A stretch of 64,000 bases of DNA. Origin: Naegleria gruberi. Lineage: Eukaryota. This document shows, piece after piece, positions 19,111 through 61,830 of this stretch. The notes beneath the pieces were generated by a model, which was not told the origin of the DNA, did not search any database, and was given only the letters and a program-made list of their open reading frames with translations. The position numbers and the translations under genes are program-made. The stretch lies in NCBI GenBank assembly GCA_000004985.1, contig GG738864.1. One strand, written 5' to 3'. Each line of letters begins with the position of its first letter. The stretch's first letter is position 1.

Positions 19111-19497
19111 CACTCAATAAAGTATATACAAAATAAATTAATTTTTATATTAAGCGTCGTGTATCGTCGATGGTGTGATGTAATATGATGATTTCCAAGT
19201 AAAAACAACAACAATAACAATTTAACGCTCTCTCTGTTGAATCTTTTTGGAAGGTTTTCTCGCCAATCTAATTTTTTTTATTGAATAAAACGTTATATTC
19301 CCTTAAAAGGCGACTGTTGAGAGTGTTGATATTCGTTCATGTTTAAGGCGCCAAAAGAAACAAAGGAAATCATGACCCTTAAATTAGAAGACTACCGAGG
19401 AAACCCTGACACATATTTGTAATTTCGCTCTCTGTTTTAACAGATTTATTAGGAAAGGGTTATTTTGGCATTAGTATGAATGCTTCAGTTGATTCAC

Positions 19498-22400
19498 CTA
19501 AGCATGCTTTTCAATTTGAACATGCTCTTCTATTTGATTATCATCAAACACGCCCAAACTATCATAATGCTTGAAGAATTCATTCGTGTACTTGAGACAT
19601 GATGTTTCCACAAGGGAGAGAACACTGCTGTTTCTTGATACATGGTTTGCCTTGTCACTTTCAAGTGTTTTGGTGTGAAAACGTTGCTTCTTGAGTGAGA
19701 ACAATGCCAATTCATAAGGAGATACAACCAATTGGTCTTGTTCATATGCCTCCTCTATTTCAATAAGTGGATAATCTTGTCTATACTCTTTAAGAAATGC
19801 TTGCAAGTTCTTCAAACAATTCGAATCATATCTCATCAATTCCTTATCCAATCTTCTCTTCTCATTGCTTTCATTCTCTTGAATTGATTGAACTGAATAA
19901 TCATCTCTCAATAGAATAAATTTATCACCGCTTGCCATCAACATTAAATGAAGAAAGTTCAATTCTTTCATGTAAATATTCTGTGTAAATTGCCTGTTCA
20001 CACAAAGTTTGAATTCTGGAGATTGTTTCATCAATCGAACAAGTTCAAACCAGCCAATTGAGAAGAGATCAAATTCTGGAGAATCTTGGTTCAGATTTTG
20101 TTCAGATCTTTCAAGGAATAGACATTGAAGTAAAATGTAAATTAGGCACGTGTAAATTTCTCTTCTGATTTGTTGGTCTTCTGTTTCGTGAACATTAGTT
20201 TCATCTTCAGGTGGAAGAAAATCAGAAGAATCAACACTTCTTGGAGAATTACATTCTTCGTTTGATTCCACAGTGGACAATTCAGTTTCTAATAAAGAAA
20301 GTAAACTTTGAGAAATAACTGGAAGTATTCTACATGCCTCATTCTTCAAATTATCCAATTCCAATTTCTCATCTTGCATTATACCAGTATTATCGTCCAA
20401 ATAGTTTAGGATAAATTTGTGAAGAATCATTAAAAGAATAGGAGGTGCATCGTTTTCCATGAAAATTTCACGATAACTGAATTTCCATCTATCAATTTGA
20501 ATATTATCAAGGAATTCATTTGATTTGAAGGAGACATCGAATGGTTTCTTATCGTTTTTAGAAGAAACTTGATCGTCACTATTCGATTCTTCCATTAATT
20601 GACCATCATTACTTGAATAGTGTATTTTCCTGGAAGAAACATTCATCAACTTGAGAATTTGTCTTCCCAATTCTAAATTCCTGTAAAATCTTGAACTTTT
20701 CACAATTGTCATTGGAAGAAGTCTTTCTAATCTATTACAATTATTCAAGCAACTTGTTAGACAGTCATTTTCTAAAAGGAAAGTCAATAAGAAGGAAGAA
20801 TCCTTGGCTATTTGTATACACATTGTTTCTTCATCATTATTCGAAAGACTTTTCAATGAATCGGATAAGAAACAATTCAAATCATAAACAGTACTTTGAT
20901 TCCAATTCAACTTTTCAACCGATTCACTCAAACATAAAATTAAACTAAATGCAAATGAAGTTGAACCCAAGCAATTTTTCAAAATTTCACTTTCCTTTTC
21001 CATTGTTAACTCCACTTTCTTATTCGAAACTTTGTAAACTTCTGGATTAAACATTCTTCCCGCCATTTCCATAAAGAATTCCAACAAGCATTGAATATAA
21101 TCCTTAAACGAATCAAAATGTTTCAATGTCAATCTCAACAATTCAGTCATCACTTGAATTGTGTTAAATTCTGTCAAAATCAAAATTATCAAACTTTGAT
21201 ATTTTGAAAGTTTACAAAGAGTTGTAATGGAGTTTACAATATTACAACTAGTTTCGTGAGAGTTGTATAGGGAAATGGATTTGAAATGTCTTACTTGTGT
21301 TAGAATTTCCAAATCGGATTGAAGTTTTCTTGTGGAAAGTTTTAACATTTCGGCAACATTCAATGGAGAAAGGTCAATAATTTCGTTTGGAGGAAATGAG
21401 TGGATAATCTCAAGATGCTTGTATAATCTTTGATATCCTTTGAATTTGGAACAGTTTAAATCACTGTAGAGTCTTGTCAAAAGTGAAGGAATTTGATATC
21501 CTAAATAGTAAGAACTATTCGAAAGGATATTAGAAAAGAATGGAAAGACTTGCTTACTTACTGTTCGAAAATGATATTCTCTAAATCAACAATTAGTTGG
21601 CTATTGTCAAATTCTTCAATAATTGGAGAAATTAGAGACTTGGATAATTCTTCCAATTTGTTCGAAAGTTTCTTTCTATACGATTCACACTTGTAAATGG
21701 AACACAAAGCAAGACATGAATATCCCATAGTAATAATAGTTTCCAATCTATTCTTAACTGTTTGTTCTTCCATTTTAAGTTGAATATCCTTTCGAATACT
21801 ATGTTTCGTATTACCATCTTTCAAAGCTTGACACCTTTCGAATATTTCTTGATGTTCTTTAGCCTGTTCTTCCAACTGTTCAACTTCCTTTTCTAATAAA
21901 TCCAATTCTCTCAATTCTCTAGAAGGATCTTTCTTGATCGCAAAGAGCTTTCGTTTCGGTGTTGTTTCTCCATGTTTCGTTTTTCGTTGTTTTTCAGTTT
22001 TTGGAGAATTTACCTTCTTTTCCTGATTACTATTTCTAATAGGGCTGTCAAATATTTTACATTCCTCTTCGAAAGAAACTTGTCTCAAATATTCGATTGG
22101 AATTTCACAAACTCCATCGTTATCAAACTTGTTCAATATCAGTTCTTTCAATTCGAATATTTCAGGTTGGTTTCTACTCAACAGTTGACACAATTTTGAA
22201 ACATTTTGCTCGTTTCCATCCAAGCAGAAAACATAGGATAATGGTGGTTTGGAAAAAACCGAAACCATATTCGAATCTTGACTCATACTTTTACAATGAT
22301 CCAATTCCTTCTTTACATTTCTCACCATTTCATGCATTTGGAAGGAAGTCAATAAATTTTCAAAGCTTTCTGAAAATTCATGACCAAATCTTGTGAATGA

Positions 22401-23759
22401 GCTTTTCAAATCTTTATACGAAACTTCAAGTGAACGATTCTTCTTTCTTTCCTTAAATTGACTAAATTTTTCTTTCAAATTCTGATTTACCAATTCATTT
22501 TCTCTCAAATGATTAGAACACAACTCGATAATCGTAAATGGTTTTTCAATTACCAAATCTTGTGGAATTTCCTTGAATTCATGTTCGTGATGGTCGAAAC
22601 CTCTGACTTTATGGAGATACGAAACAAGATATTCATTACAAATAGTTTGAAAGTAGAGAAATAAATCTTGGTAGAGTTGATTGATTTGGTGAGTGATGAA
22701 AGTTGGTTTTTCCTCTTGTGGAATTTCAGACGAAAGTAGTTCCAAGTAATTTTCTAACAAACTTTCTAATAAACAGTCGCAGTTGATGGGATCTCTGGAG
22801 AGGTATTGATCCAAATTGAACATCATTGTCTTGAATTGTTCAAAATTTTCTTGTTGATTCTCGAAAATTCTCTTTACACATTTGGAAAATTCATCTCCAA
22901 AACTTTCCATTTCTAGAAATAGCTCAAATATCTTTGTTCTTCTAGATTTCAAATTTTTATATTCTAATATTTGAGAATCTTCACAATTGTCCAATAAATT
23001 CTCAATTGGTTCATAATGAATATTAACATATCTCAAAATCTCTTTCATAAATGTTGGAGCTTTAGATTGATAATCGTGAGTTAATTTCACATACGGAGTT
23101 GACTGGAACGAGGTCGATCTATTAGCCAACCAATCATTCTCTCCACATCTTATCCAAAACAATGCCAACACTTCCTTTACCATATTAACTTCATTCAGAA
23201 ATTCGACACGTTTCGAATTATTCAACAGGAGACGACTCTTCATCATTTGAAACAATGAAGATTTGTAATTTGTTCTATCATGCCCATACTCCCCTTCCTG
23301 AATCATTGAATTGCTAATAACAATTGGACTCGGATTCGAACTCTGACTCCATTGAGAAAAAGAATCCAAATCCTTAAAGTACCGCAAGTGGAAGGATGAA
23401 GAGTTTTGATTGGGAGAAGTTGGTGAGACACTTCCCTCAATGATTGTATTCCTAAAGATATTCCTCTCGATAATGAGATGAGAGAGTTTCAATTGTTGAA
23501 AGCATTGGCAGAGAAATTGATCGGAGCTTAATTTTGGACTTGTTGTTTGCGGGGAAGAAATATTGAGGGACGTGTTGATGATATTGGGAGGAGAGGATTC
23601 TTCTAGGGTGATTTTGTTGGATGGTGTTGATTGTGAAGGTGTGGGTTTTCTTGAGGGGAGTGAAAATGTTTTCATTCTTTTTTTTAATAGTAATAAAACA
23701 GGAAATTTCCAAAATAGCTGTTTTATAAACTGTTGTATTTTCCATAGATGAATGAACAT
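19498..23759 (-). CDS. large hypothetical protein (~1400 aa), 2 exons (23759..21562, 21514..19498) joined by a 47-nt GTAAGT...AATAG intron
   Basis: Track ORFs 21558..23759 and 19498..21480 (TTG pseudo-start) are contiguous in frame across the intron, giving ...ENIIFEH|SYYLGYQIPSLLTRLYSD.... The N-terminus is Ser/Pro-rich and a coiled-coil lies around residues 770-820. No family recognised. Confidence 0.55.
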
Positions 23760-23831: not shown

Positions 23832-25808
23832 TTATTGTATCTTCCATTGCATGATACAAACATCACCTCCACCAGCACTGAAGAGATAATCACCATTTTC
23901 TGTAAATTTGACATTTGTAACATGTGAACAGTGACCCAAATATTCGACTCGTTGAGGAGTTGTTGTGGCTGTTGGATAGTGGAATGTTGTCACTCTTCCA
24001 TTATCACCTGCTGATACAAGTAATTGTCTTCCAAAATGAACAGCTGTTGCATTGATATCAGTTCCATCCATGTCTGATTTCCAAACACCTCTAACTTTCC
24101 AAGCAACTGTACAAGTAACACTTGCCCAGTCAAATTCTTCCAAATGACCATCATGAGTAAGTTGCTTGCCTTGAGAAACATCCCACAATAAAACTTCGTA
24201 ATCTCCACTCAATGTTCTCATCAATTTACCATCTGTAGTAAAGTCAATTGATTTAACAAATGAAGTGTGACCCACCAACTTTTTGATAACCTTAAAGGTA
24301 CTTGTTTCATACAAATAGATATTATTATCGTGAGAACCAGCTGCGAGGTATTTTCCATCTGGTGAAAATTGAAGAGCAGCAATTTCTTCTTTAGCATCTC
24401 TGGAATTTACAATAGGTTGAGATGAAATAGAGTCTCCATTGAAAGAATAAACGAAAAGAGTTCCATATTTAGTACCTGTTGCAATGTAGTGGCCAAAATA
24501 TGCTACCGATCTCAAATCCCCCTTTGTTGTAACCTTAATTTGTTGTACATGTTTTCTTGTTCCATAATTCCACAAGATTAATCTTCCATCGTCACCGCAA
24601 GAGCAAAAGTATGGGGTTTGTGGAATTGTACATAATCCCCACAATTCAGTTTGTTGATCTCCGTAGTGAGAAACCAATAAGAGCTCGACCTTGGACTTGT
24701 TAGAAATTCTTACCAAATCACCATTTGTCCTGGAAGCATAAACTACATCATCCTCCACTGTTGAAGGAACAACACTTCTAACTTGATCCATTAAATTGAG
24801 GGAGGCAACATCTTTGAACATGTTTACACCTTCAACTTTTTCATTTGTGAATTGCCACCAAATAACTTTACCATCTCTACCGCTTGAAATGAATCCATTA
24901 CTAGTTCTATAAATACAATATACAGTTCCTGAGTGAGCTTGTTTTTTAAAGACAAGTTTGTTTGAAGAAAAGACATAGAGAGAACCGTCCTTCATACCAC
25001 AAATTGGATTTCCCTCCAAATCGTAGCAGGATGTGTAGGATGATTGAGCAGTACCTCTTGGTGAAAAGATTGCTTGATTAAAATGTTCAGTATTGAGACA
25101 CAACGTATCAAAACATACCTTGTTTTGCTTTGAGACCTTCGTTGATTTCAAAGAATTTGGCAGTATTTTTACCTCCAAGTAAAATCTTACTGTCATCTGG
25201 ACTAAAGCTCAAATCAAAAACTTCTCCGTTATGAGCTTTACAATGACCTAGAAGAGTTCCACTTTGCCAATCATAGACCAATAGAAGATTATCTAACTCA
25301 GGACCTCCAACAGCTGCCAATTTGGTTCCATCATTTGAAAAAGCAAGTGTATAAACACCACCATTTTTGAAAAAGATATGTGAATCCAAAACTTGAATTG
25401 GTTCATAAGGGTTACTACTATTCCAAACACAAATTATATTATTCTTTCCCAAATTACCTGTTGCAAATGTTTCTCCATTCGGACTAGAGAATTTCATTAA
25501 TATATTACATCCACTTTTAAAACCTACTGTTTGGCAATACAAGTAACATCATCAGTGTGCTTGATAAATATCTTTTGAGCATTAATTTCTGGATTATAAA
25601 CAACACCACAAGCAGCAGCAGGATAGACCAATTCTCCACTATTATTCATATGGAAAATATTACCATTACATCCCTTCTTACTACACCCATGAATAAATTC
25701 CAACTCGAGATTATTTGGAGGAGGAATATCCAGCAATGAGGAGGCATCCGAAGGAGCATGTAAGGTTGTTTTCAAAAAGCGAGGATGACGGCCAGCAGAG
25801 GTTATCAT
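23832..25808 (-). CDS. EML/EMAP (echinoderm microtubule-associated protein-like) WD40 protein, ~628 aa, 3 exons (25808..~25528, 25483..25119, 25072..23832)
   Basis: The HELP motif region LELEFIHGCSKKGCNGNIFHMNNSGELVYPAAACGVVYNPEINAQKIFIKHTDDVTCIA|KHPNGETFATGNLG matches EML (LELEWVYGYRG...HTDDVKCLAIHPDKIRIATGQ). WD40 blades run throughout. The introns are 44 and 46 nt with GTAGGT and GTATGT donors. Confidence 0.85.
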
Positions 25809-26044: not shown

Positions 26045-26581
26045 ATGGAACAACAATCATTAATGGTGGCCAAATTACCTCCGACTATTCGATTTCTGTT
26101 AGATAAGGCCTTCCGTAGACAAGTATTGGACAAGTGGAGTGATTGTAGTACTTTTACACAATTTATACAAATGTACAGAGTGGAGGCAGTGAGTGGAATT
26201 TTAGGATTAATAGGAAGTTGGGTTCTTGTAAATTGGAGATGGTTGTCTCATCCTGTTAGAGTGTCGTGGACTGCTGATCAAGAGTCGAGTAAAATTGTAT
26301 ATATTTTGACATCAAATAGTAAGAATTTTACAAAGGAATTGGCTATTGAAGCACTCAAAGAATTGAGATATATTCCCGATGATTTTCCAATTGCCACAAC
26401 TAATGTTCAAGTGTTGAGTGACAAGGAAATGCAAGTCACAATCGGAAAACAATCAAAGGAACAATTGAAAGCTTTTGTGGAGGAGAGGGATTTAATGTTT
26501 TCATCAAGTATTAAATCAACATTGTTTGGTACCTTGTTTAGTATTGGAATTGTTAATTGGATGAGAGCAATGACGAAATAG
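26045..26581 (+). CDS. hypothetical 178-aa protein with one predicted TM helix (SGILGLIGSWVLVNW); function unknown
   Basis: ATG-initiated ORF sharing a 236-bp divergent promoter with the EML gene. Confidence 0.4.
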   Translation: MEQQSLMVAKLPPTIRFLLDKAFRRQVLDKWSDCSTFTQFIQMYRVEAVSGILGLIGSWVLVNWRWLSHPVRVSWTADQESSKIVYILTSNSKNFTKELAIEALKELRYIPDDFPIATTNVQVLSDKEMQVTIGKQSKEQLKAFVEERDLMFSSSIKSTLFGTLFSIGIVNWMRAMTK

Positions 26582-27187: not shown

Positions 27188-28336
27188 TTATTTGTTTTCG
27201 AAAAGCTTGGCAATATTCTTGCGAGCTTGTTGAAACTTAGTATTTGGACTCATATTTTCCTTATCCATATCGTTAGGGGTTGAGAGTTGCTTATTGACAA
27301 CCTTTGGAGAAACCTTTGGTGAGGCTACAACCTTGGAAAGAGGAACAGGTTTTCTAATTGGAGAACAAGTAAAGCTAGAGCTAGATTCCACATCTGACTC
27401 GGCATCATCTTGTCTTTGTAAATTATGAACACTACTGAACTTATTCTTAATGGCAGCAAACAATTCACCTTGGAATGCATTTGGATTCTTCTTCATTGGA
27501 GTACCACCTGGAGACTTTTGAATTGGTCTTAATTTTACAGAACCAGCCTTCTTAATCAAATCAGATATGGACATTGGTTGTTGATGAAGTGGTTCAGCCT
27601 TAGGTTGCTCGTTGTCGTCTTTTTTAACTATAGTGAATTTTGGTTTGGTAAGAACAATTGGTACTGTTGGAATACTCAACAATGGTGGTGGAGGAACACC
27701 AGCAGCAGCAGCTCCACCTGGAATCATCATCATTGGAGGAGGTTGAGGAATGTTAGAAATTGGAGGAGGTGGTGGAATATTGGTGGCTTGTTGTTGAATG
27801 GAGGATTTGACCCTCTTCTCGACTGTATTTCTGGCCACTGTTTTTCTGAGTGATGAAGATTGCTCGTTTTTAGAAACAATGGCAATTTGTTCCTTGAGCA
27901 TCATCAATTGTTGTTCCAAATCTTCCATCTTGGTGAGTGAATCCAAAGTAGATTCCAGACCTTCTAATGGTGATGTATTGTATGATGATTCTTGTTGTTT
28001 CTTCTTCTTATCGGGAGTAAAGTATCCCATTTGATGTCTCAAACGTTGAAAGTAAGCCTTCTTCTTTCGCTTTCTCTCCTTCATATCCTTCAAGGAGGAG
28101 ACATCATAGTTCTGAGTTATGGCATTAAAGACATCCTTTGCATACTCAACAAACCAATCTCTTGTATTGGAGAGAAGGGCCCACATGAAGAGGAAAGCTC
28201 GTTCGCCAAACACTGGCTGTTCAGATGATGCTGATGATGATTGATAATTGTGAAGACTTGAACTTCCTTGACGATTCATCATCCTAGCATGAGAGTTGTA
28301 ATTATTATTGGGTTGATAGTAATATTGGCCGTTCAT
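27188..28336 (-). CDS. proline-rich protein with WH2-like and C/A-like C-terminal motifs (possible WASP/WAVE-type actin nucleation-promoting factor), 382 aa
   Basis: A coiled-coil segment is followed by polyproline (NIPPPPPISNIPQPPPMMMIPGG...VPPPP). After that comes DLIKKAGSVKLRP (WH2-like), then GELFAAIKNKFSSVH (amphipathic C-like helix) and an acidic tail DDAESDVESS. Confidence 0.5.
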   Translation of the reverse strand: MNGQYYYQPNNNYNSHARMMNRQGSSSLHNYQSSSASSEQPVFGERAFLFMWALLSNTRDWFVEYAKDVFNAITQNYDVSSLKDMKERKRKKKAYFQRLRHQMGYFTPDKKKKQQESSYNTSPLEGLESTLDSLTKMEDLEQQLMMLKEQIAIVSKNEQSSSLRKTVARNTVEKRVKSSIQQQATNIPPPPPISNIPQPPPMMMIPGGAAAAGVPPPPLLSIPTVPIVLTKPKFTIVKKDDNEQPKAEPLHQQPMSISDLIKKAGSVKLRPIQKSPGGTPMKKNPNAFQGELFAAIKNKFSSVHNLQRQDDAESDVESSSSFTCSPIRKPVPLSKVVASPKVSPKVVNKQLSTPNDMDKENMSPNTKFQQARKNIAKLFENK

Positions 28337-28716: not shown

Positions 28717-29360
28717 AAACCAACTCTGACAAAGTATTGATCATCACCACTACTATTCATGCCATTGGAGGAATCATTCTGATATTGAGAAGACTATTGA
28801 GGCTAACATTTGTTTATTTTTCAACAAGGGTTAACATTTTGTTCAAAACAATTACAAAATCATTATTCAAAAAGTAATTATTTTATGGATGGCCCATGGA
28901 AAAAAGCTCTAAATCGACTCGGCATATCCTCACTTCATTATAATTCTACAATGCTCAATATCCTCTCCAAAGGATCAACAAGGATCGTCGAAATGTAGGC
29001 TCAAACTCTGAAAAATATTGCGCATTCTCACTCCGTAAAAAATATCTCTTTTGGTTGGTGATTTTTTCAAACTCCATTGCAATACTACTTCTTGGAGTAT
29101 TAATATCTTTCATCATCACATCTTGTTTATATAATTATAAATAATTATTTTGAGAAAGGATTTTTTTGGAAGATACTATCCCTCTCAATCCGATAATTAG
29201 ATCATCATCATTGGGTGAATTCACTTTTCCAATTTTTTTAAATTGTTGTAGGAGTTTAATATTTCAAACTGTACTTTTTTGCTAGTTGTAAACTCCATCA
29301 ACTCCGTTTAATAGAGAAAGAACATCCTTTTTGTTAGAAGAAGATAAATAACAGTTCAAC

Positions 29361-31787
29361 ATGCAGCCACCATCTGTTCTTCCACCACCACCCTTCTCCG
29401 AGCTTTACGTAAAAAGAGAATCAAATTATGAAGCAGCTGAACAAGTGAGTCATGCCAATAACCATCATCCATCTTTATCACCAGCAGAATCATCCAATAA
29501 CAATTCATCATCAGTAGTTGCTATATCCAATTTCCCACCAATCCTACCTCACCCAATACCAGTAAATACCGTCTCTAACCAACATCCATCCACTCATCAA
29601 CAACAACACTATTCAACAACAACCACCACTATTTTGGATCATGGACCAATGTTGTTAAATAATTCATACCATCAACCACAATCGACATCTTTTAATCCAG
29701 TATCCGCTTCAACAAACACCTCTGAAAAACAACCAAAGAAGAGAAAACAATCATCAGCGTCCATTCCTGTAAACAATATGATGACTGATGTAAACAATGG
29801 TGACTCACCAAAAAAGAAAAAGAAGAGAAAACAAGTGAAAAGAGCTTGTATTAATTGTCATAAGAGCCATGCTGGGTGTGATGAAGTTAGACCATGCAAG
29901 AGATGTGTTTCGTTAGGTTTAGAAGCAACATGTCTCGATGTTGAACCTAGAAATACCAAGAGAAAGTCAAGTGATGTTAAGAGTGAATCAAATAGTAATG
30001 CTGGAAATGGTTTGAGTGCTCCTCATTCTGGAAATCAGAATGTCGTGCAACAGACCTCATCTAATTCAATGCTTTCCAATTCTCATCTCCATTCTCTCCA
30101 CCATCACAACCCTAATAGTACAAATAATACCTCTCAAACAACAGCTAGTTTACCTCCTCCAATTTCTGCTTTGGGAGCTGCTTCATTGGGGGCAACAGTC
30201 AATTTGCATTCTCCACCTCAATTCACTCATCCAGGTCATCATTATTCAGCAGGTGGTCATCATTATGGAGCTTCTAGTGCACCAGGTTCATCTTACTTGC
30301 ATCATCCACTGTATCCACCTTCTGGTTCATTGATGGCTTCTCCTTCACTTTCACAAAATTCTGGAGGTTCAGGAGGATCCTATCAACAATATTCACAATC
30401 CTATCAGAGACACGCATTGTTACCTCCTCCATCATCTCTGATAAATTCAACAGATTATGATAATACACAAAATCCTGCTCAAAGAGGAGTTAATCCTGCA
30501 GGCCAACCAATTTCTGCACAATCACATTTGGCCTTAATTAATAGTGTAATGATGCAACAACAATTACTCATTCAAGCATTACAAAAACTTGAATCAGGTT
30601 CTACATTGGATCCAAGTATTACCAATAGCTTAATTGCTGGAAATAACATGATTGGACAAACATTGGATAACATGCCAACTAAATCTCAAGCATTACCAAA
30701 CTTGGCAGAGAAGACTCCATTAACCAGTTTAGACCCACATCTCAGACCTTCGGGTTACTTTTTACCACCATCTAGTCATTCATTATCTCCACCTAATTTA
30801 CTACCATCTGTAAATAGCAATTTATTATCACCAGGTACAAATACTAACCAAACCCCAATGAATAGAACCTACTCTTCAAGTTCATTGGAAGGATTACTTG
30901 GTCCAGCAACACCAACTGCAGCAACCCCCCTCTCTCATGTTGTTACAACACCTCTCAATTTGCATCCAGAAAGTGGTCCAATTACACCAATGCAAGAAGC
31001 TAGTCTTGCATTGTCAGGTCATTCTAATAGCCAAACTTTGAGTGCAAACAAGAATATTGAACAAACTCATCAACAACATCAACCATTATCACAACATCAA
31101 CATATTCAACAACCTCAAAAGGAAATGCAAAGAAAGGAACCAGAAAATTCTCCTTTACAGGAGAAACAACCAGAGCAAGAGCAAAAAGATGATGAACCAG
31201 AGGAATACGTTGTCAGTCTCTTTAGAAAACCAAATAATGACGTAGATATTATCGATGACTATTTTGCTCTTTTCAACAGCAATATTTCTGATGATGGCTA
31301 TGAGGAATATAATGTGGCCGAAACTCAAAACGAAAATACAACAGAAAGACCATCATCTGAGAATATTGTTGACGATTCGGAATTTAATACTTGTATAATA
31401 GGCAGGGATAATATTAATGATCCTTCACAATGTTCTGGAAGTGTATTCCTACCAGCTGGAGACGTTTGTGTTGCTGTTTGGAAATTGAATGGAGTACTGT
31501 ATTCAGGAAATAAGAACTTTTTCTCAGTTTTTGGAGTGCCAAGCCTTGTTGAAGGCAATCAAATTAATTTTTCATCGATTTTAGATATGGATTCAGATCC
31601 AGATTTGAAACAACTGTTTAGTTGTCGATCTGATTTTTATGCAAAGAAGACTAAATTGCACAGATATGTGGAAAAGAGAGATCAACCTGCAGATACTATT
31701 GAAGGTTTTTTACAGGCCTATGTTATCAGAGACTCTCAAGGAATTTTGCCAATCTATATCACCACCCACATATCTATTGCTAAATAA
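29361..31787 (+). CDS. Zn(II)2Cys6 binuclear-cluster (Gal4-type) transcription factor with C-terminal PAS-like domain, 808 aa
   Basis: A basic run KKKKKRKQVKRA is followed by CINCHKSHAGCDEVRPCKRCVSLGLEATC, which fits CX2CX6CX5CX2CX8C. Long His/Gln/Ser/Asn/Pro low-complexity regions follow. The C-terminal ~130 aa (VAVWKLNGVLYSGNKNFFSVFGV...IEGFLQAYVIRDSQGILPIYITTHISI) looks like a PAS fold. Confidence 0.8.
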   Translation: MQPPSVLPPPPFSELYVKRESNYEAAEQVSHANNHHPSLSPAESSNNNSSSVVAISNFPPILPHPIPVNTVSNQHPSTHQQQHYSTTTTTILDHGPMLLNNSYHQPQSTSFNPVSASTNTSEKQPKKRKQSSASIPVNNMMTDVNNGDSPKKKKKRKQVKRACINCHKSHAGCDEVRPCKRCVSLGLEATCLDVEPRNTKRKSSDVKSESNSNAGNGLSAPHSGNQNVVQQTSSNSMLSNSHLHSLHHHNPNSTNNTSQTTASLPPPISALGAASLGATVNLHSPPQFTHPGHHYSAGGHHYGASSAPGSSYLHHPLYPPSGSLMASPSLSQNSGGSGGSYQQYSQSYQRHALLPPPSSLINSTDYDNTQNPAQRGVNPAGQPISAQSHLALINSVMMQQQLLIQALQKLESGSTLDPSITNSLIAGNNMIGQTLDNMPTKSQALPNLAEKTPLTSLDPHLRPSGYFLPPSSHSLSPPNLLPSVNSNLLSPGTNTNQTPMNRTYSSSSLEGLLGPATPTAATPLSHVVTTPLNLHPESGPITPMQEASLALSGHSNSQTLSANKNIEQTHQQHQPLSQHQHIQQPQKEMQRKEPENSPLQEKQPEQEQKDDEPEEYVVSLFRKPNNDVDIIDDYFALFNSNISDDGYEEYNVAETQNENTTERPSSENIVDDSEFNTCIIGRDNINDPSQCSGSVFLPAGDVCVAVWKLNGVLYSGNKNFFSVFGVPSLVEGNQINFSSILDMDSDPDLKQLFSCRSDFYAKKTKLHRYVEKRDQPADTIEGFLQAYVIRDSQGILPIYITTHISIAK

Positions 31788-31894
31788 TACTTTAATAAAC
31801 ATTGATTCATTGTACATTTTTGAAATAATTCTGACAATATATTTATTTAATAATATGCCCTTCCTAATTTCAGGTTTAAGAAAATTAATAAGGT

Positions 31895-33688
31895 TTATTG
31901 ACTCTTGATTTTTTGAGTCGAGGTGGAATCCTTACTCAAAGCAAACTTGAGAATAATGTAAAGGAAAAGACCGAAGAAGACTGGACCACCCAAAGTTTCC
32001 TTCCAGATAAAGATGGAGTGTTCAACAGAGAGCAAAACGAATGAACAACCAATATAGTTGGTCATTGCTTGAGTGAAGAAGTATCCAAGAATATTGTAGA
32101 TGGCAATGGTTGGGGTAATGTGCTTCATAGATTCAATTGGGTGATAAATATCAAAGTTGTAATCGGCTGGAATAATGTGCTTTCTGAATAAGCTTCTGAA
32201 CACTGTTTTTCAAATGTGATTAATAATTTAGTTAATTGAAAACAACTTACTTCTACCGAATTCAACACCAACACCACAGAGAACAAAGAAAAGATAATAA
32301 CCAGGATAGAAACCGTGCCAAAAAGCAATGACGAGGAAAGTTTCGAACAATTCCTTAGTACCTGGTCTAGCGCCCTTTTTCTTATTTCTGAGATAGACAT
32401 CTAGATGAAACAATAATTAATAAATGTTAAAATAATGATTACTTACACTTCTTGACCCACTTGTGAACACCAATATTCCAGTGAATTGACAAGAGATATG
32501 GTGAAGAGGCAAGTTCAAATCTCCAGAAATCAATTTGAGAAACAGCAGACCAATCTTTCTTTACAGGATCATAACCAAAACCAGCCAACCAAGCAGAACC
32601 TTGAGCCATGTGCCAGACAAGATAATAACGGAATCTGAAAAATTCGACAACCAAAACAATAAAGAAGAATTTAGAGATCAAAGACATGGCAGCGAATTCT
32701 TCTCTATTATACATGATGAATTCTCTATCGAATTTATCAATTTGGGAGAAACCAATAAAGCTGATAACAATCATACCCAAATTATAGAAGAATCCACTAA
32801 GGGAGAATGGAATATGATCCAAATCGTACTATTAATTGTCACATCCAATCTATTCAATCACGAAAACTTACATTTCTCAAATAATGTCTAAAGTACTTCA
32901 AATCAAATGGTGGACCAGCCAACAATGCAGGATAGTAAAAGCAATAGGAAACATATTCCATGAATGAAGGAAGTTCAGACACACTAGCCTTAACCAATTC
33001 TTCATCGAGTTCTTCCTTAGCATTTGGATTGAGACCATCAGCATAGTTGAAAGCACAAGAGTTAATTCTCAAAACCATCATCATTAACATTGCACTATAG
33101 TCAACTCTTTGACTGGTGAAATCAGTTTGCATACGAATAAAGTGGCTATAATTTAACATTAGCAATCTTGAAAATGTGTGAAAATACATACGCAACAGAC
33201 AAGTAGGTCCATACAAAGGCAAAAACAAGTTTTGGAGCAATATTCTTTGGAAGAACAGCCATCATAAAATAGGAAAGGAAACTACAAGCAACACCATGGA
33301 AACCTTCATATCCGAAAGTAAAGATGGCATAAAACAATCCGAGAGTGCACAAATAAACAGTTTTCAAAAACACATTGTTTTTCAACAAGTTATTGTTAAA
33401 AATAATTCTATAAACAAAGCTCCAGAAATAGGTAAGGAGCAACATCAAAATGAAAATAGTTTGGTCAGCCTTCAATCCGATAGAGCTTCCCTTCTCATCC
33501 AAAAATTGATAAATAGGCTCGAAAATTGGATAAATTGGTTCTCCGACAGGTTCCAATAAATATTGTTGGGCATACTTTGCTCCATAACAAACGAAATTTG
33601 TTGGCATCACCAACCCCTCACAAGGAGTCATAAAATTCGGATGACTACTCAACAACCTCGGGAACAGCGAGTAATTAATTTCAGCCAT
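31895..33688 (-). CDS. MBOAT-family lysophospholipid acyltransferase (ALE1/LPCAT3-like), ~536 aa, 5 exons (33688..~33192, 33145..32873, 32829..32447, 32400..32251, 32202..31895)
   Basis: Six track ORFs join through introns of 43-48 nt with GTATGT or GTAAGT donors. The MBOAT signature VIAFWHGFYPGYYLFF with the catalytic His is present. Multiple TM helices are predicted. The exon junction ...EFGR|MFRSLFRKH... is in frame. Confidence 0.8.
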
Positions 33689-34070
33689 TTTTTTTTAAAA
33701 TTTTAAATAGTTCGCGCCACAGTTTTGCGATATCGTAATGCAAATCCGATAAGTCCTACAGAGTTTCAACTCTCTGCTCCGCATCATATTGTGGATGAAC
33801 AATTCATTGAAGTGAGAGAGGTGAGGAAGAAACAATATTGTTAAATTCTTGTTCTGAATGAAGATTGAAAGTAAGGTTTCGGAATATATATTATTATGGA
33901 AAGATGCTGAATTGTTAGAGTTTACAATGAGATATCTTGTTACCAAAATTGCACTCTTCACACTACAGTACATAATTATTTCACTATACCATCAATTGAG
34001 TATTATTGCATCAATGGTTACAATCTTTGTAATCATCATGAACCAATCATTAATTACTAATCAAAAAAAA

Positions 34071-35177
34071 ATGAGTGAACAACAATCTGTTTCATCCTCT
34101 TGCTGCTTTAAAGAAATTTCTCTCTCCGATATTGAAAATGCCTCGGAACGTATCAGAAAATATATTCATAAAACTCCTGTTCTTACCAATTCGACAATTT
34201 CACAAATGACCGGAATTCCTAATTGTACATTATATTTAAAATGTGAAAATTTGAACAAGGTCGGAGCTTTCAAGATTCGTGGAGCTTGTAATGCAGTATT
34301 GAATGCATTGAATAATTCTGATGAGGAAATTGTGAAAAAAATCAAGGAAGGAGGTGTGATTACACACTCTTCTGGTAATCATGCTGGAGCTTTGGCTAAA
34401 TCTGCTCAAATGTTGGGATTGACAGCTCATATCGTAATGCCAAGTAATTCTCCTGCAGTCAAGAAGAATGCAGTTGAATTGACTTATGGTGCCAGAGTAA
34501 TTTTGTGTGAACCAACTTTGAGATCAAGAGAGGAAACTTGTGAAAGAATTATTCAAGAAACTGGAGCTTTATTTATTCACCCATATGATAATGATGATGT
34601 AATTACTGGACAAGGAACTGCTGTTTTGGAAATGTTGGATCAAGTGAAGGAGGAAAGATTGACTGACGAGTTCCCACTCGATGCATTGATTGTCCCTGTA
34701 GGTGGGGGTGGACTTTCCTCTGGATCTAGTATTTGTTTCAAATCAAAGGCAGCTTTGGAAATTAAGGATTTGGAAAAATTGAAGAAAACCAAAGTTATTG
34801 GTGTTGAACCTCAAGTTGTCGATGATGCTAAGAGATCTATGGAGCAAGGAAAGCTTGTTGGAAACGATCCTAATGTCCCAGCCAATACAGTTTGTGATGG
34901 TTTAAAGACAAACTTGTCAGAGAGAACATTCCATCATATTTCTAAGAATATTGATAGAATTTTCACAGTGACAGATGAGCAAGTTATCAAAGCCATGAAA
35001 CTTGTTTGGGAGAGAATGAAAATTGTTATTGAACCAAGCTCTGCCACTGTCGTTGCTCTCACTCTATTCCATGATGAATTCAAACAAATGGCCACTGAAA
35101 ATCAATGGCAACATATTGGAATGGTAATTAGTGGAGGAAATTGTGATTTGGATGCTCTTCCTTGGACGAAGAAGTAA
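34071..35177 (+). CDS. serine racemase / serine-threonine dehydratase-like PLP (fold type II) enzyme, 369 aa
   Basis: HKTPVLTNSTISQMTG...KCENLNKVGAFKIRGACNAV matches the serine racemase PLP-Lys region (SFKIRGA). A GGGG Gly loop is present. The track ORF starts upstream at 33858. The first ATG at 34071 preceded by an A-run is the better start, divergent from the MBOAT gene. Confidence 0.8.
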   Translation: MSEQQSVSSSCCFKEISLSDIENASERIRKYIHKTPVLTNSTISQMTGIPNCTLYLKCENLNKVGAFKIRGACNAVLNALNNSDEEIVKKIKEGGVITHSSGNHAGALAKSAQMLGLTAHIVMPSNSPAVKKNAVELTYGARVILCEPTLRSREETCERIIQETGALFIHPYDNDDVITGQGTAVLEMLDQVKEERLTDEFPLDALIVPVGGGGLSSGSSICFKSKAALEIKDLEKLKKTKVIGVEPQVVDDAKRSMEQGKLVGNDPNVPANTVCDGLKTNLSERTFHHISKNIDRIFTVTDEQVIKAMKLVWERMKIVIEPSSATVVALTLFHDEFKQMATENQWQHIGMVISGGNCDLDALPWTKK

Positions 35178-35354: not shown

Positions 35355-36407
35355 ATGCAAAGATCACAACAACAGCAAACCATCAAACTCGCCAAAGCAA
35401 AACAAAAGAAAACAATTTCTTCCGAAAGATTGCCAACAGAAACATTTACATCCATTGTAAGAGATTGTTTAAAATTAAAACTTGATATTCGACCTTTACA
35501 ATTCAAGAAGAAATTTTCTAACGGAACAGACTTTCTTTATGATAAGGTAAAGAATTTGAAGGCAGTTTGTCGAGAAATCAATAGAGGAGATAATGTCATG
35601 ATGAAAATAATTTTCACATGTCAAGATTCTCAACCAATAATTCCAAATTATATACAAGGAGCAGAGAGTAATATTGAAAAGCATAAAATTTCGTACCCAG
35701 ATAAGATCATGTCAATAGACACTTTACGAATTGATATTGAATTTCCATACCATAATTCAATAACAGAGGTTGCTAAGAAGATTAATTTACATGAGGAAGA
35801 ACTGATCAATTCTCTTATAACTATTATTGATATGGATGATCATCAAGTTTATTTCAAAATGAAAACTAATTATTTCAATGAGGATAAGGAGCATTTGTAT
35901 AGATATATTGTAATTGGAAAAATGGATCAAAGTGAACATGCTTTCATCTTTGATGTGAGCGATTTTTCAAATATTTGTGGTACCAATGGTGCTATTCCAA
36001 AAAATCTCAAAAAGATTTATGATTTGTGCATGCCACAGGATTTAGCCCAATATTTTGAAAAGACTGGATGCAGCTCAACAAATTCAGATACAAGTGTTAG
36101 AAGAGTTGGATTTGGAATGTTCTTCAGATCAGATACCAGACCAAGCAGAGAGCGTTGCAGAAGACACTACTATTCGGGTTGGGAATCAGATGGTTCAGTT
36201 GCAACCTTAGTGAACTCGTATTCAAGGAATGGAGATTATGGTATTCAAATATTGGCACAGGGTGCAAGAAAATTCTATCCAACTGAGTATTCTGGTGAGA
36301 TTGATGTAGGATATTACAAATTTAAAATGGGATGGTGTAGATTCACTTCATTCCATTCAGCCCAGCACTACACTTGCAAATTAATCCAGGAAGTTAAAAA
36401 TTCATAA
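35355..36407 (+). CDS. hypothetical protein, 350 aa
   Basis: ATG-initiated ORF with an A-rich context. No family recognised. Confidence 0.45.
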   Translation: MQRSQQQQTIKLAKAKQKKTISSERLPTETFTSIVRDCLKLKLDIRPLQFKKKFSNGTDFLYDKVKNLKAVCREINRGDNVMMKIIFTCQDSQPIIPNYIQGAESNIEKHKISYPDKIMSIDTLRIDIEFPYHNSITEVAKKINLHEEELINSLITIIDMDDHQVYFKMKTNYFNEDKEHLYRYIVIGKMDQSEHAFIFDVSDFSNICGTNGAIPKNLKKIYDLCMPQDLAQYFEKTGCSSTNSDTSVRRVGFGMFFRSDTRPSRERCRRHYYSGWESDGSVATLVNSYSRNGDYGIQILAQGARKFYPTEYSGEIDVGYYKFKMGWCRFTSFHSAQHYTCKLIQEVKNS

Positions 36408-36728
36408 ATATTGAATTGTATTCTGATATGCAGTTTCAACTTCGATATGATCAGAAAATTGGTAAGCAAAATTTTCATCATGTAGAACGTTCAATAAATA
36501 TAGAAGATTGAGCAACCGTTTCAAATTCTTCAACCAAACCTTACTGAACCAACAATCTAACGTTTCGGTCCAAGTGTATATTTTTATGTAAATACCAGAA
36601 ATTATAGACATAAATGACTATGGCCATCATCCCGTCCGATTTGAGAAGTTAAATATTGTCGAGTACTGAGGTTGGAGACAACTTGGGAACCTTTGCTAAT
36701 TGTAAAGTCAAAAAAAATACCCTCACTC

Positions 36729-38768
36729 ATGCCACAAGGGAATGCCATCATTTTTCTTGATTGTAAAATCTCATCCGACTTGCTATCGGGCATGTATCAA
36801 CACTCGAAACGAATACAACTCTACAAGCAGATAATTTTACAATTTTACATGTATAAAATGGATGTGCCACTCTCCGATACTTTGAAAAACGATCGTCAGT
36901 TTATTCTACAAGCACTCCAATACGATTTTATATTCCATAAATATGGAAAGAAATTTGTAGAAGAGTTTTTAAGGAAAGATGAAGAATTTATTATGGAAAT
37001 GATAAGAGTCAATCCAAGGATTATTAGATATTGTCCAAAAAGACCTAAATATTGTTTACAAGCTGTAAAGTATGATCCTCAAATGTTGTTGTATGCGCCA
37101 AAGGAGGTTAAAAGATCAGAATCAATTGTTTGGGAATTATTCAAGAGGGATGCTTCCTGTTTGAGATATGCAAGTCAACGATTGACAAGTGGACCATTTG
37201 CTTTTAAAGTTTTTGAGTACAATGAGAGTGCATTTAGAACATTTTGTAAACATCCATTTACAATTAATTCAATATCTAAAAGGGAGGATTTGTTAAAACT
37301 TGTGTCTATGGGCTCATACTATTCGAAAATTAGTCCTACATTGAGAGAGGATGAGGAGGTTCAATTGGCAGCTCTCAACCATGACGCATATGTTTGGCAA
37401 TTATTGAGAGATGATTTAAAAAATGATAGGAACTTGGCAATGGAATGGGTTAAGAAAAATAGAGAAATTCTTGGATATACGAAATTTATTCACGATTATG
37501 AATTTATGGTGGAGCTGATTGAGGAGAATACTATTTATTTTTGGGATTTCAAAGGAGAAATGAAAGAACAACTTTTCAGAAAGAACAAAAAACTCCTTAT
37601 GACTGCTTTGGAGGATTACAAAATATTGGACTATCATTGGATACCTATTATTTCTACAAGTTGGTATTCCCTTCCTTCATCAATAAGTCAAGATAGAGAA
37701 GTAATCATGTTGTTTTTGAGAAAATTATGTAAAAATGAAAATGGATATAGATACTTTACATTTACCGTTTCTGGAGGAAATATTACAATCAATTGTGACC
37801 AATATTTTAAGGTATGCCTTGAAAATTTCCAAACTGACAGAGATTTCTTCCATTTAAATTTATCTAAAATTGGGTTGAATAGAGTATACGCATATGCTGA
37901 TCAATCAATGAAGAGAGATCCCAAATTCATTGCTTTTGTATTCAATTCATATCCTAACAATAATATCACTTTTGAATATGACAAGAATATAGTGAGAGAA
38001 CTTATTCCGCTTCTCAAGACAAATCCGTCTCAATTATTCACGGATATCAGATCATTGATTTCGGATGACAAGGAGCTATTACTGTTATGCATCAAGAATA
38101 TTAGCCCTTATTGCTTTAATTATGCATCTGAACACTTGAAAACTAATGTGGATTTTATAGAGGAGTGCATGCGAGTTAATAATTCAGTCATAGCAACTGT
38201 TTCCTTGAAATTGGTTAGAATGAATAAGGAATTGGCAATCCTAGCATTCAAAAAGGCAGTAGAAATAGATATAATACTCCCTATTTTAAAAGAATATTTG
38301 GCTGATGATGAATTATTTCAACTGCTATTCCAACCTTATTCAAATATTACTAGCGATCGATTGCTGAAAATATGTGAGGAATTAAGAATTTCTGATAATT
38401 TGAAAAATGATTATGAGCTTGCAAGAAGGATAATGAATAGATCTATCAAGTTCAGTATCATATTCAAAGACGCACCATTCATCAAAGAATTGATAATTGA
38501 AAAACTCATTCAGGGTCCAATCTGCTATTTAGAATTGAACGATTGTTTTAAATTTGATTGGGATTTGTTTAGTACTGTATACAGAAAGGCAGATTACATG
38601 GGTAGAACTAATTTGGTGTATAATAATCAGCACCTCAAGAAAAAAGATGTTTTAGTTAAATTATTAGGGAAAGGAGTGTATATTAGTGATAATGATAATG
38701 GTTTTATTGATAAGAAAATTACAAATGTGGATTTCATGTTGGAAAACTGTTCTCAAATGTTGATTTGA
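36729..38768 (+). CDS. repeat protein (~680 aa) built from tandem ~25-50-aa helical repeats resembling DUF4116
   Basis: Repeats of the form xFILQALQYDxxxLxYAPKEVKRDxExV recur throughout, for example LQAVKYDPQMLLYAPKEVKRSESIVWELFKRDASCLRYASQRL. The track ORF begins at a TTG (36672). The first in-frame ATG is at 36729. Confidence 0.45.
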   Translation: MPQGNAIIFLDCKISSDLLSGMYQHSKRIQLYKQIILQFYMYKMDVPLSDTLKNDRQFILQALQYDFIFHKYGKKFVEEFLRKDEEFIMEMIRVNPRIIRYCPKRPKYCLQAVKYDPQMLLYAPKEVKRSESIVWELFKRDASCLRYASQRLTSGPFAFKVFEYNESAFRTFCKHPFTINSISKREDLLKLVSMGSYYSKISPTLREDEEVQLAALNHDAYVWQLLRDDLKNDRNLAMEWVKKNREILGYTKFIHDYEFMVELIEENTIYFWDFKGEMKEQLFRKNKKLLMTALEDYKILDYHWIPIISTSWYSLPSSISQDREVIMLFLRKLCKNENGYRYFTFTVSGGNITINCDQYFKVCLENFQTDRDFFHLNLSKIGLNRVYAYADQSMKRDPKFIAFVFNSYPNNNITFEYDKNIVRELIPLLKTNPSQLFTDIRSLISDDKELLLLCIKNISPYCFNYASEHLKTNVDFIEECMRVNNSVIATVSLKLVRMNKELAILAFKKAVEIDIILPILKEYLADDELFQLLFQPYSNITSDRLLKICEELRISDNLKNDYELARRIMNRSIKFSIIFKDAPFIKELIIEKLIQGPICYLELNDCFKFDWDLFSTVYRKADYMGRTNLVYNNQHLKKKDVLVKLLGKGVYISDNDNGFIDKKITNVDFMLENCSQMLI

Positions 38769-48421: not shown

Positions 48422-48493
48422 TCCCGTGTAGTCCAATGGCTAGGATACCTGGCTTTCACCCAGGAGGTCCGGGTTCAATTCCCGGCATGGGAG
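48422..48493 (+). tRNA. tRNA-Glu (anticodon UUC), 72 nt, no intron
   Basis: The cloverleaf folds by hand. The acceptor TCCCGTG pairs with CATGGGA (one G-U). The D stem is GTCC/GGAT. The anticodon stem CCTGG/CCAGG carries the loop CT-TTC-AC. The variable loop is 4 nt. The T stem CCGGG/CCCGG has the loop TTCAATT. The A box is TAGTCCAATGG and the B box GGTTCAATTCC. Overall it resembles eukaryotic tRNA-Glu-TTC. Confidence 0.9.
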
Positions 48494-61774: not shown

Positions 61775-61830
61775 ATGAAGCAACCTTTCACACAACTTGC
61801 TCACTCCATCGTAAATCAAAGTTTTTCTTC
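61775..61830 (-). pseudogene. short antisense footprint of a kinase catalytic-loop/DFG region (remnant of a further paralog)
   Basis: A 22-nt exact match tcacacaacttgctcactccat occurs with kinase C at ~56745-56766 on the plus strand. The minus-strand translation ...LIYDGVSKLCERLLH matches kinase C's DVHGVSKLCDFGLSRLL. It overlaps the first 18 codons of track ORF 61775..62800. Confidence 0.4.

Follow-up and report, generated by a model that had tools for sequence, protein, structure and literature searches.

Positions 29361-31787 (plus strand) of the 64,000-nucleotide stretch of Naegleria gruberi DNA analysed here, which we call the window, hold NAEGRDRAFT_48608, an intronless coding sequence that reads as a single uninterrupted open reading frame (ORF) of 808 amino acids and a stop codon. 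N. gruberi is an amoeboflagellate and belongs to the Heterolobosea (Discoba). The translation of the ORF is identical to the N. gruberi entries XP_002677882.1, EFC45138.1 and D2VDG6, which RefSeq names "predicted protein", and its beginning (MQP...) is kept in the orthologues. We predict that this protein is an uncharacterised transcription factor with an N-terminal Zn2Cys6 cluster and a C-terminal PAS domain (Table 1). Literature searches by accession and locus tag found no mention of the protein or its orthologues, and searches pairing Naegleria with Zn2Cys6, Zn_clus and zinc-cluster vocabulary returned nothing on the protein itself.

Table 1. Features of the NAEGRDRAFT_48608 product and selected genes of the window
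Feature	Position	Strand	Basis
Zn2Cys6 binuclear cluster, Ert1/AcuK subtype by sequence, with His170	29847..29933	+	aa 163-191; Pfam PF00172, hhalign, phmmer
Basic run KKKKKRKQVKR, aa 151-161	29811..29843	+	sequence; K153-R161 invariant in five closest orthologues
Helix aa 386-411 (...SHLALINSVMMQQQLLIQALQKLE), 26 residues	30516..30593	+	pLDDT ~74, full-length model
Ser/Thr-Pro-rich motif SSLEGLLGPATPTAATP, aa 507-523	30879..30929	+	conservation in orthologues; disordered in model
Acidic-aromatic motif DIIDDYFALFN, aa 629-639	31245..31277	+	conservation; short helix, low-confidence model
C-terminal PAS-fold domain (predicted), aa ~699-808	31455..31784	+	structure prediction; not detected by Pfam
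NAEGRDRAFT_66834, upstream neighbour, 382 aa, no Pfam domain	27188..28336	-	exact RefSeq match
Second upstream neighbour, 178 aa, position conserved	26045..26581	+	tblastn
SLC4 gene	3701-5785		Pfam
Leishmanolysin gene	17119-19113		Pfam
EML gene	23832-25196		Pfam
PLP-dependent enzyme gene	33858-35177		Pfam

Source genome and surroundings of the gene

Three ORFs of the window (29361-31784, 27191-28336 and 61775-62797) match RefSeq proteins of N. gruberi NEG-M exactly, all on one scaffold of 441,990 bp, and orthologues of the NAEGRDRAFT_48608 product occur across Heterolobosea, in N. fowleri (FDP41_012570), N. lovaniensis, Willaertia and Acrasis. A preliminary description of the window had argued for a fungal or near-fungal genome, a view that these exact matches and orthologues contradict. 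Nor do the lesser arguments in its favour hold: the kilobase upstream of the gene contains no CT-rich promoter tract (pyrimidines make up 54% of it, against 50.5% of the window, and no stretch of 30 nt exceeds 73%), and the appeal to short introns and CTAAT-like branch sites is inapplicable to this gene because it is intronless. Across the window, CTAA[CT] lies near the 3' end in only 6 of 44 candidate short GTA[AT]GT...YAG segments.

The surrounding gene content had been read with more success. Pfam identifies the leishmanolysin, EML and SLC4 genes, as well as three receptor genes that combine NHL, EGF and kinase domains; MBOAT and tRNA-Glu are likewise present, and Pfam also identifies a PLP-dependent enzyme gene. 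The supposed sensor cyclase-like receptor was not found: no window ORF of at least 150 aa shows a cyclase domain. As to the source lineage, "excavate" stood among the options offered, and that part of the proposal survives; the puzzle of an under-sampled lineage does not, the N. gruberi genome having reportedly been published by Fritz-Laylin et al. in 2010. Through their exact N. gruberi matches, the genes effectively fall within a well-sampled clade, the outcome that the preliminary description had itself named as telling against its puzzle.

Zinc clusters outside the fungi, including a set in N. gruberi, were in any case already known. For example, 71 zinc binuclear cluster proteins are recorded for N. 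gruberi (Scazzocchio 2014, PMC5611559), 22 for Acanthamoeba and 3 for Dictyostelium (PMC4053784); others are found in Capsaspora, Fonticula, diatoms and Ectocarpus (PMC5611559, PMC4053784), and Shelest 2017 (PMC5415576) states explicitly that possession of the cluster does not identify an organism as a fungus. The Naegleria proteins are, moreover, described in the literature as unlike their fungal counterparts. Thus the lineage puzzle is dissolved: the NAEGRDRAFT_48608 product is one among many (reported as 71) zinc-cluster proteins of N. gruberi, and the gene is therefore no sign of fungal affinity. The presence of a "fungal-type" Zn2Cys6 domain is no evidence that a genome is fungal, and the window is ordinary N. 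gruberi sequence.

That the gene itself might be fungal DNA, whether by contamination or by recent insertion, we regard as hardly conceivable. Its sole support is the "fungal-type" name of the domain, whereas the gene sits between Naegleria genes on the N. gruberi scaffold, has the same G+C as the rest of the window, is present at 99.5% identity in an independent assembly, has orthologues with conserved neighbours in N. lovaniensis and Willaertia, and resembles no fungal protein beyond the 45-aa cluster. Scaffold context, synteny and the independent assembly together rule such an origin out. The conserved neighbours are the two upstream genes: by tblastn, NAEGRDRAFT_66834 adjoins the orthologue in both N. 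lovaniensis (L002) and Willaertia (L003), and the 178-aa protein has matches in L002 (5260-5763) and L003 (5534-6025), again beside the factor orthologues. Both neighbours are context and lie outside the factor itself.

The zinc cluster and its basic arm

The cluster, CINCHKSHAGCDEVRPCKRCVSLGLEATC, places its six cysteines at C163, C166, C173, C179, C182 and C191, and the resulting spacing, C-X2-C-X6-C-X5-C-X2-C-X8-C, fits the PF00172 pattern C-X2-C-X6-C-X5-12-C-X2-C-X6-8-C. The Pfam Zn_clus model scores 23.8 bits on the whole protein (E 5e-5) and 27.7 bits on the isolated domain (E 2.8e-6), both above the curated PF00172 gathering threshold of 21 bits; the DNA-binding domain of Schizosaccharomyces pombe Pho7 (PDB 6o19/6e33) matches at E 5e-7 over 49 residues; and all six cysteines are invariant in the 8/8 family members compared. 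The Pfam score, the Pho7 match and the invariant cysteines put the Zn2Cys6 assignment beyond chance, and the preliminary description had correctly recognised both the cluster and the basic run before it. That run, KKKKKRKQVKR, can be aligned to the Pho7 domain's basic arm and is a putative nuclear localisation signal (NLS) that may double as an N-terminal DNA-contacting arm. In the structure model the zinc-cluster region reaches a pLDDT of only 53-63, as expected in the absence of zinc.

By sequence, the cluster belongs to the Ert1/AcuK subtype, a call made on a domain of about 45 residues, for which the outgroups were limited to the generic Pfam model and clusters of solved structure. Over 47 columns of an hhalign alignment with the Ert1/AcuK family it shows 51% identity and reaches 99.1% probability (E 5.6e-19), and by phmmer it scores 49 bits against S. 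cerevisiae Ert1 and 40-51 bits against most members of that family. The shared features are an N-terminal basic arm, an identical 29-residue cysteine spacing, (S/A)H in loop 1, and CD/E-xx-RPCxRC followed by GLxxxCxD. Pho7, the closest solved structure by sequence, has a similar basic arm and cluster (KRAC..C......CD..RPC.RC) but scores below the Ert1-family clusters, at 33.5 bits, and is not known to have a PAS domain. Classical Gal4-type activators such as Gal4, Put3, Hap1 and Ppr1 have the six-cysteine binuclear cluster (PF00172) in common with the NAEGRDRAFT_48608 product, but the similarity is weak (18, 16.6 and 14.8 bits to Put3, Hap1 and Ppr1, with Gal4 absent within E<=1). They also carry a Fungal_trans middle homology region, whereas neither Fungal_trans nor Fungal_trans_2 follows the cluster here, Zn_clus being the sole Pfam family in the whole protein at E<=1.

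The conserved Lys residues with which Gal4-type clusters contact DNA are replaced in this cluster (HKSHAG), so its target sequence does not lend itself to confident prediction. Together with the mostly disordered character of the protein, this replacement could be read to mean that it is no transcription factor at all, that the cluster binds protein or RNA, and that the whole serves in the cytoplasm as a signalling scaffold with a PAS domain. We consider such a role very improbable, since the basic arm and the cluster bear a close resemblance to the DNA-binding domains of Pho7 and Ert1, an NLS-like run stands directly before the cluster, and the characterised Zn2Cys6 proteins Pho7, Put3, Hap1, Ppr1 and AcuK/AcuM all bind DNA.

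The linker and the C-terminal PAS fold

Between the zinc cluster and the PAS domain lie some 500 residues, for the most part a disordered linker rich in Q, S, N and P, with a few short conserved motifs. No coiled coil is found directly behind the cluster. The helix at 386-411, which shows conservation of L403, Q405 and adjacent residues all the way from Naegleria to Acrasis, is a candidate dimerisation element. Further along, SSLEGLLGPATPTAATP keeps S507, S508, E510-P515, T517, P518, T522 and P523 invariant in 5/5 orthologues and might serve as a phosphorylation or docking site. The acidic-aromatic motif, with a helix modelled at 630-639, is invariant from D629 to F635 in the five closest orthologues, F635 itself being present in 8/8 family members; it is a candidate activation or PAS-docking motif.

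The predicted structure bears out a PAS-like C-terminal domain, as had been proposed: it has the PAS fold, a five-stranded antiparallel sheet with flanking helices in the order beta-beta-alpha-alpha-alpha-beta-beta-beta, and its structural matches are dominated by PAS domains, HIF-2a/ARNT and AHR PAS-B among them. Searches with its sequence gave no match among Pfam PAS families at E<=10 and none among PDB sequences, and the fold is thus revealed by structure prediction alone; the domain lacks annotation in sequence databases. Animal bHLH-PAS proteins (HIF, AHR/ARNT, CLOCK/BMAL) follow a common logic, in which a small DNA-binding module is joined to PAS domains for dimerisation and for ligand or signal sensing, but their DNA-binding fold is unrelated and their PAS-A and PAS-B stand in tandem, against a single PAS here, and the parallel is one of analogy only.

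The layout matches that of the fungal gluconeogenesis regulators Ert1/AcuK/Rds2, in which the cluster is likewise N-terminal and a PAS fold occupies the extreme C-terminus. Their family (Ert1/AcuK, Rds2/AcuM and Gsm1, and also Aod2/Aod5, Rse2/Rse3 and Cryptococcus Pas2/Rds2) combines Zn2Cys6 with PF24990 (PAS_13, "ERT1/acuK family PAS domain"). At the same time, the sequence of the heterolobosean PAS has no detectable relation to theirs. PF24990 gives no hit at its C-terminus at E<=10, whereas 103-121 bits are obtained for the positive controls from yeast (Ert1) and Rhizopus (ERT1); phmmer finds no match between the heterolobosean and Ert1/AcuK PAS domains; and hhalign of the heterolobosean PAS and of the post-cluster region against the family yields E 0.41 and 0.55, neither of them significant. 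In that hhalign comparison of the whole post-cluster region, the fungal pre-PAS block (...PFSY..GYH.L..YLK.RF...YRPSFIA...) has no significant counterpart. The heterolobosean linker is also far longer and disordered, and the host is a discoban protist. With the PAS sequences unrelated, we would call the protein a functional analogue of Ert1/AcuK rather than a demonstrated member of its family. A shared post-cluster motif (heterolobosean HLALINSV/HEYFPILTQL, fungal EYSILSNII) was considered and is not claimed, as it aligns only in the non-significant global trace.

These comparisons bear directly on whether the architecture was assembled convergently. Heterolobosea, with their large and varied zinc-cluster repertoire, may have fused a cluster to an unrelated PAS domain independently, in which case the likeness to Ert1/AcuK would concern a short DNA-binding module only and would carry neither functional nor historical meaning. 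We take both parts of this account as serious possibilities, though somewhat short of even chances. Consistent with it are the absence of significant similarity beyond the cluster and of any PAS_13 hit, the "variety of architectures" that Scazzocchio 2014 (PMC5611559) notes among Naegleria zinc-cluster proteins, and the fact that PAS domains are common, promiscuous modules. A Willaertia paralogue (P0006) and a Balamuthia protein (P0007) repeat the layout, which counts towards its use in transcription factors: their clusters are almost identical to this one, and at the C-terminus each has a putative PAS that Pfam PAS models hit below threshold. The two PAS domains are, however, mutually unrelated in sequence, which again favours convergence, and attempts with phmmer and hhalign to link the four PAS groups (the heterolobosean family, the Willaertia paralogue, Balamuthia and the Ert1 family) failed. 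Against convergence, the cluster is clearly nearer the Ert1/AcuK type than the other clusters tested, the domains come in the same order and sit at the same termini, and the global hhalign trace, of low confidence, is colinear, with PAS beta1-beta2 in register.

Descent and possible function

When 1.8 billion representatives were searched exhaustively with a profile, 14 proteins were found, and the named members with the full architecture are all heterolobosean. In Willaertia, the orthologue has a spliceosomal intron within the cluster-coding region. Counting the restriction of the family, the microsynteny, the Willaertia intron and the matching G+C in favour of vertical descent, we conclude that NAEGRDRAFT_48608 represents, in N. 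gruberi, a family of orthologues inherited vertically within Heterolobosea. This family is new here and so, as a modest point, is its resemblance to Ert1/AcuK.

The deeper origin of the family is another matter. The nearest non-heterolobosean clusters found are those of Mucorales (Parasitella, Backusella), at 60-64% identity over the domain; the pointer to them came from searching a word-indexed database with a profile of the zinc-cluster alignment, which yielded just six short proteins and did not recover the heterolobosean family. An Ert1/AcuK-like gene might have been acquired by an ancestor of Heterolobosea from an early fungal lineage, such as an aquatic or Mucoromycota-like one, its PAS and linker then diverging rapidly, a scenario of the kind proposed for Naegleria zinc clusters by Scazzocchio 2014 (PMC5611559). 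Set against this are the span of the gene from Naegleria to Acrasis, its synteny in Naegleria and Willaertia and the Willaertia-specific intron, so that any transfer would have to be very old, and further the similar cluster and putative PAS in the amoebozoan Balamuthia, as well as the shortness of the domain, whose 45 or so residues are too few for a trustworthy tree. On balance we hold ancient transfer to be rather unlikely.

Regardless of how the architecture arose, we believe that this protein, in which a basic arm and an Ert1/AcuK-type cluster are followed by a mostly disordered linker and a C-terminal PAS, is probably a nuclear, sequence-specific transcription factor. In such a factor, the zinc cluster would bind half-sites of the CGG/CCG type, and the PAS domain, possibly with helix 386-411, would mediate homo- or heterodimerisation, gate activity by sensing a redox or small-molecule signal, or do both, while the DIIDDYF motif might act in activation. 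The part played by PAS would parallel that in the fungal Zn2Cys6-PAS pairs AcuK/AcuM, Ert1/Rds2 and Pas2/Rds2. In fungi, AcuK/AcuM-family proteins combine Zn2Cys6 with PAS, act as heterodimers on CCGN7CCG and control gluconeogenic or respiratory genes, and PAS mutations impair their function in several species (PMC12719309). A role for the heterolobosean factor in carbon or respiratory metabolism is speculation by analogy with these fungal factors.

A bolder proposal would make the union of an Ert1/AcuK-type Zn2Cys6 cluster with PAS an ancient eukaryotic design rather than something invented by fungi, passed down vertically in Discoba, Amoebozoa (Balamuthia) and Fungi, with the heterolobosean protein as the counterpart of AcuK/AcuM, a PAS-mediated dimer that reprograms carbon or respiratory metabolism. 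We think this distinctly unlikely; if true, it would favour an "ancient family, massively lost" answer to the origin of zinc clusters, where Scazzocchio 2014 (PMC5611559) weighs ancient origin against horizontal transfer. The heterolobosean family offers a concrete case for testing these alternatives. For the evolution of transcription factors the gain is small: a Heterolobosea-wide protein with the cluster subtype and domain order of Ert1/AcuK/Rds2. The protein is, in addition, a candidate for a signal-responsive regulator in Naegleria, the genus to which the pathogen N. fowleri, with its orthologue FDP41_012570, belongs. The Gal4-like type of zinc cluster, finally, exists in Heterolobosea as well, in a neighbouring gene in Acrasis.

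Gene, product and DNA-binding cluster

The gene under study is one uninterrupted ORF of 808 codons, with the same G+C content as its flanks, in a window that is AT-rich (31-37% G+C) and dense in genes. An exact-sequence look-up identifies its product as Naegleria gruberi XP_002677882.1 / EFC45138.1 / UniProt D2VDG6, annotated as "predicted protein" (NAEGRDRAFT_48608), and two further exact matches, NAEGRDRAFT_66834 and NAEGRDRAFT_48615, lie on the same 441,990-bp N. gruberi scaffold. An independent assembly, a public 'metagenome' contig (ENA ERZ929261 / ERR1078381, PRJEB11402), matches window 29083-34415 over its whole length (5337 bp) at 99.5% DNA identity; the sample therefore held a closely related Naegleria strain. 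N. gruberi is a heterolobosean (Discoba), and its genome has been public since 2010 (Fritz-Laylin et al.).

The zinc cluster scores 23.8 bits against PF00172 (Zn_clus, Pfam) in the whole protein and 27.7 bits as an excised domain, both above the curated cut-off of 21 bits. Among solved structures, the S. pombe Pho7 DNA-binding domain is closest in sequence (6o19/6e33, E 5e-7), with Put3, Hap1 and Ppr1 well behind at 15-18 bits. Thus the Zn2Cys6 cluster noticed in the preliminary description is sound. That description went on to argue, from the Zn2Cys6-PAS combination, CTAAT-like branch sites, short introns and a CT-rich promoter tract, for a fungal or near-fungal genome, and it considered an under-sampled AT-rich lineage the likely source of the window. 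The core of the Zn2Cys6-PAS observation stands, but the lineage reading holds only in part: the DNA comes from an excavate, neither a fungus nor a near-fungus, and from a model organism that has already been sequenced. The gene itself is intronless, and there is no CT-rich tract within 1 kb upstream of it.

Indeed, zinc clusters are present in various non-fungal species (Shelest 2017, PMC5415576), with counts of 22 in Acanthamoeba and 3 in Dictyostelium (PMC4053784). For N. gruberi, 71 zinc binuclear cluster proteins are on record, described as different in appearance from the fungal ones and of varied architectures, and the same two scenarios of ancient origin or horizontal transfer have been set out (Scazzocchio 2014, PMC5611559). 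Both the lineage puzzle and the genome-wide count have thus been addressed in print. NAEGRDRAFT_48608 belongs to a known class of factors and is itself uncharacterised; neither its own accessions and locus tag nor those of its orthologues turned up in the literature searched. What is new is modest: an unannotated PAS domain, a heterolobosean-wide family, and an Ert1/AcuK-type cluster and layout.

Features of the window and of the 808-aa product (aa, residues of NAEGRDRAFT_48608)
Feature	Position	Strand	Remark
Giant RGS protein	6974-14569	+	single ORF, 2531 aa; sole recognisable domain C-terminal RGS, aa 2406-2517
Long ORF(s)	19498-23759	-
NAEGRDRAFT_66834	27191-28336	-
NAEGRDRAFT_48608	29361-31787	+
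Basic run	aa 151-161		KKKKKRKQVKR; directly before zinc cluster
Zn2Cys6 cluster	aa 163-191		CINCHKSHAGCDEVRPCKRCVSLGLEATC; six Cys, C-X2-C-X6-C-X5-C-X2-C-X8-C
Conserved helix	aa 386-411		ordered in model
Short helix	aa 629-639		ordered in model; spans invariant DIIDDYF motif
PAS domain	C-terminal		ordered in model
Long ORF	35355-36407	+
DUF4116-repeat protein	36672-38768	+	four repeats, E 6e-37
Long ORF	39084-41257	-
NHL-EGF-kinase gene	42796-47577	-
tRNA-Glu	48422-48493
Three overlapping ORFs	48567-49511	both	200-314 aa; just downstream of tRNA-Glu
Long ORF	49737-51119	+
NHL-EGF-kinase gene	51666-55824	-
NHL-EGF-kinase gene	56667-60507	-
NAEGRDRAFT_48615	61775-62797	+
ORF with weak NHL repeat	61775-62800	+	fourth, beside receptor genes; same ORF span as NAEGRDRAFT_48615
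ORF with weak CHRD match	62876-63964	-	sub-threshold
Leishmanolysin, EML beta-propeller, SLC4, PLP-dependent enzyme, MBOAT	within window

Resemblance to fungal Ert1/AcuK factors

In fungi, a Zn2Cys6 and PAS subfamily (Aspergillus AcuK/AcuM, yeast Ert1/Rds2/Gsm1, Aod2/Aod5, Rse2/Rse3, Cryptococcus Pas2/Rds2) forms heterodimers on CCGN7CCG-type sites and governs gluconeogenesis, alternative oxidase, hypoxia and iron responses, and PAS-domain mutations impair function in several species (PMC12719309). Profile-profile comparison joins the heterolobosean zinc cluster to that of the Ert1/AcuK family with 99.1% probability (E 5.6e-19, 51% identity over 47 columns). Against S. cerevisiae Ert1 the domain from N. 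gruberi reaches 49 bits, and against most members about 40-51, compared with 33.5 bits against Pho7 and at most 18 against other solved clusters; the two groups share the cysteine spacing, (S/A)H in loop 1, CD/E-xx-RPCxRC and GLxxxCxD. Downstream of the cluster, neither hhalign (E 0.41 and 0.55) nor phmmer gave a significant match to the family, the non-significant hhalign trace being colinear with the first PAS strands in register.

On these sequence comparisons, we conclude that NAEGRDRAFT_48608 resembles an Ert1/AcuK-type factor in layout and has the same DNA-binding subtype. Membership of the family is not established, because PF24990 ("ERT1/acuK family PAS domain"), which the retrieved members carry together with Zn_clus, was not found by Pfam in the C-terminal domain, nor did hhalign give a significant match to the conserved block that precedes the PAS domain in the fungal proteins. 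A Willaertia magna paralogue (ABK040_005651) and a Balamuthia mandrillaris protein each pair a near-identical Ert1-type cluster with a Pfam PAS hit below threshold in the C-terminal half. This suggests that another heterolobosean paralogue and Amoebozoa share the layout; of the remaining clusters found, the nearest were from Mucorales.

The N. gruberi protein combines a basic arm and an Ert1/AcuK-subtype Zn2Cys6 cluster with a long disordered linker carrying short conserved motifs and a PAS fold at the C-terminus. In the full-length structure model, pLDDT is below 50 in 606 of the 808 residues, which are likely disordered, and the zinc-cluster region is among the ordered elements. From what is established for Zn2Cys6 and PAS proteins in general, these parts might work as follows: the basic run would direct nuclear import, the cluster would bind CGG/CCG half-sites, the PAS domain, perhaps with the conserved helix, could serve dimerisation and/or signal sensing, and the acidic-aromatic DIIDDYF motif may contribute to activation. 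That the protein acts in carbon or respiratory metabolism, as the fungal factors do, is speculation.

Descent within Heterolobosea

Orthologues occur across Heterolobosea. Homologues of the same layout were found in N. lovaniensis (C9374_011021), N. fowleri (FDP41_012570), Willaertia magna (ABK040_004384) and Acrasis kona (AKO1_001049), and in several environmental assemblies. An exhaustive HMMER search of 1.84 billion representative proteins with the C-terminal domain profile returned only 14 at E<=1e-3; since all named full-architecture members among them are heterolobosean, this PAS type appears restricted to Heterolobosea in present sampling.

In N. lovaniensis and Willaertia, the orthologue has the same two genes directly upstream as in N. 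gruberi. A 47-nt GTATGT...TAG intron (JBEGDK010000026.1, 8214-8260) interrupts the cluster-coding region of the Willaertia orthologue, where it splits the Gly codon that follows HA; the N. gruberi gene has none. The shared neighbours and this intron led us to reject a contaminant or recent insertion; together with the orthologues, they identify NAEGRDRAFT_48608 as an old, vertically inherited heterolobosean gene.

In Acrasis kona, the family member is preceded on its own strand, some 3 kb upstream, by a second zinc-cluster gene of another, Gal4-like type (CANCKKLHKKCDRQLPECSRCIRRSRQC; JAOPGA020001311.1, 1726-3243), which encodes a long helical region and lacks a PAS-like end. Heterolobosea therefore hold several zinc-cluster subtypes.

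Other genes of the window

The unusual set of neighbours in the preliminary description was largely borne out, from leishmanolysin, EML, SLC4 and the PLP-dependent enzyme to the NHL-EGF-kinase genes, MBOAT and tRNA-Glu. Its sensor cyclase-like receptor was not: Pfam found no adenylate or guanylate cyclase domain in any window ORF of at least 150 aa. The three receptor-like genes (NHL/teneurin-NHL, teneurin-type EGF and C-terminal protein kinase) are paralogous and form a tandem array, each split over at least two ORFs, presumably by introns. Several long ORFs of 350-733 aa, in the four stretches so labelled in the table, had no Pfam match even at E<=1. The longest of the overlapping ORFs beside tRNA-Glu had no Pfam match, and this stretch may be low-complexity or repetitive sequence.
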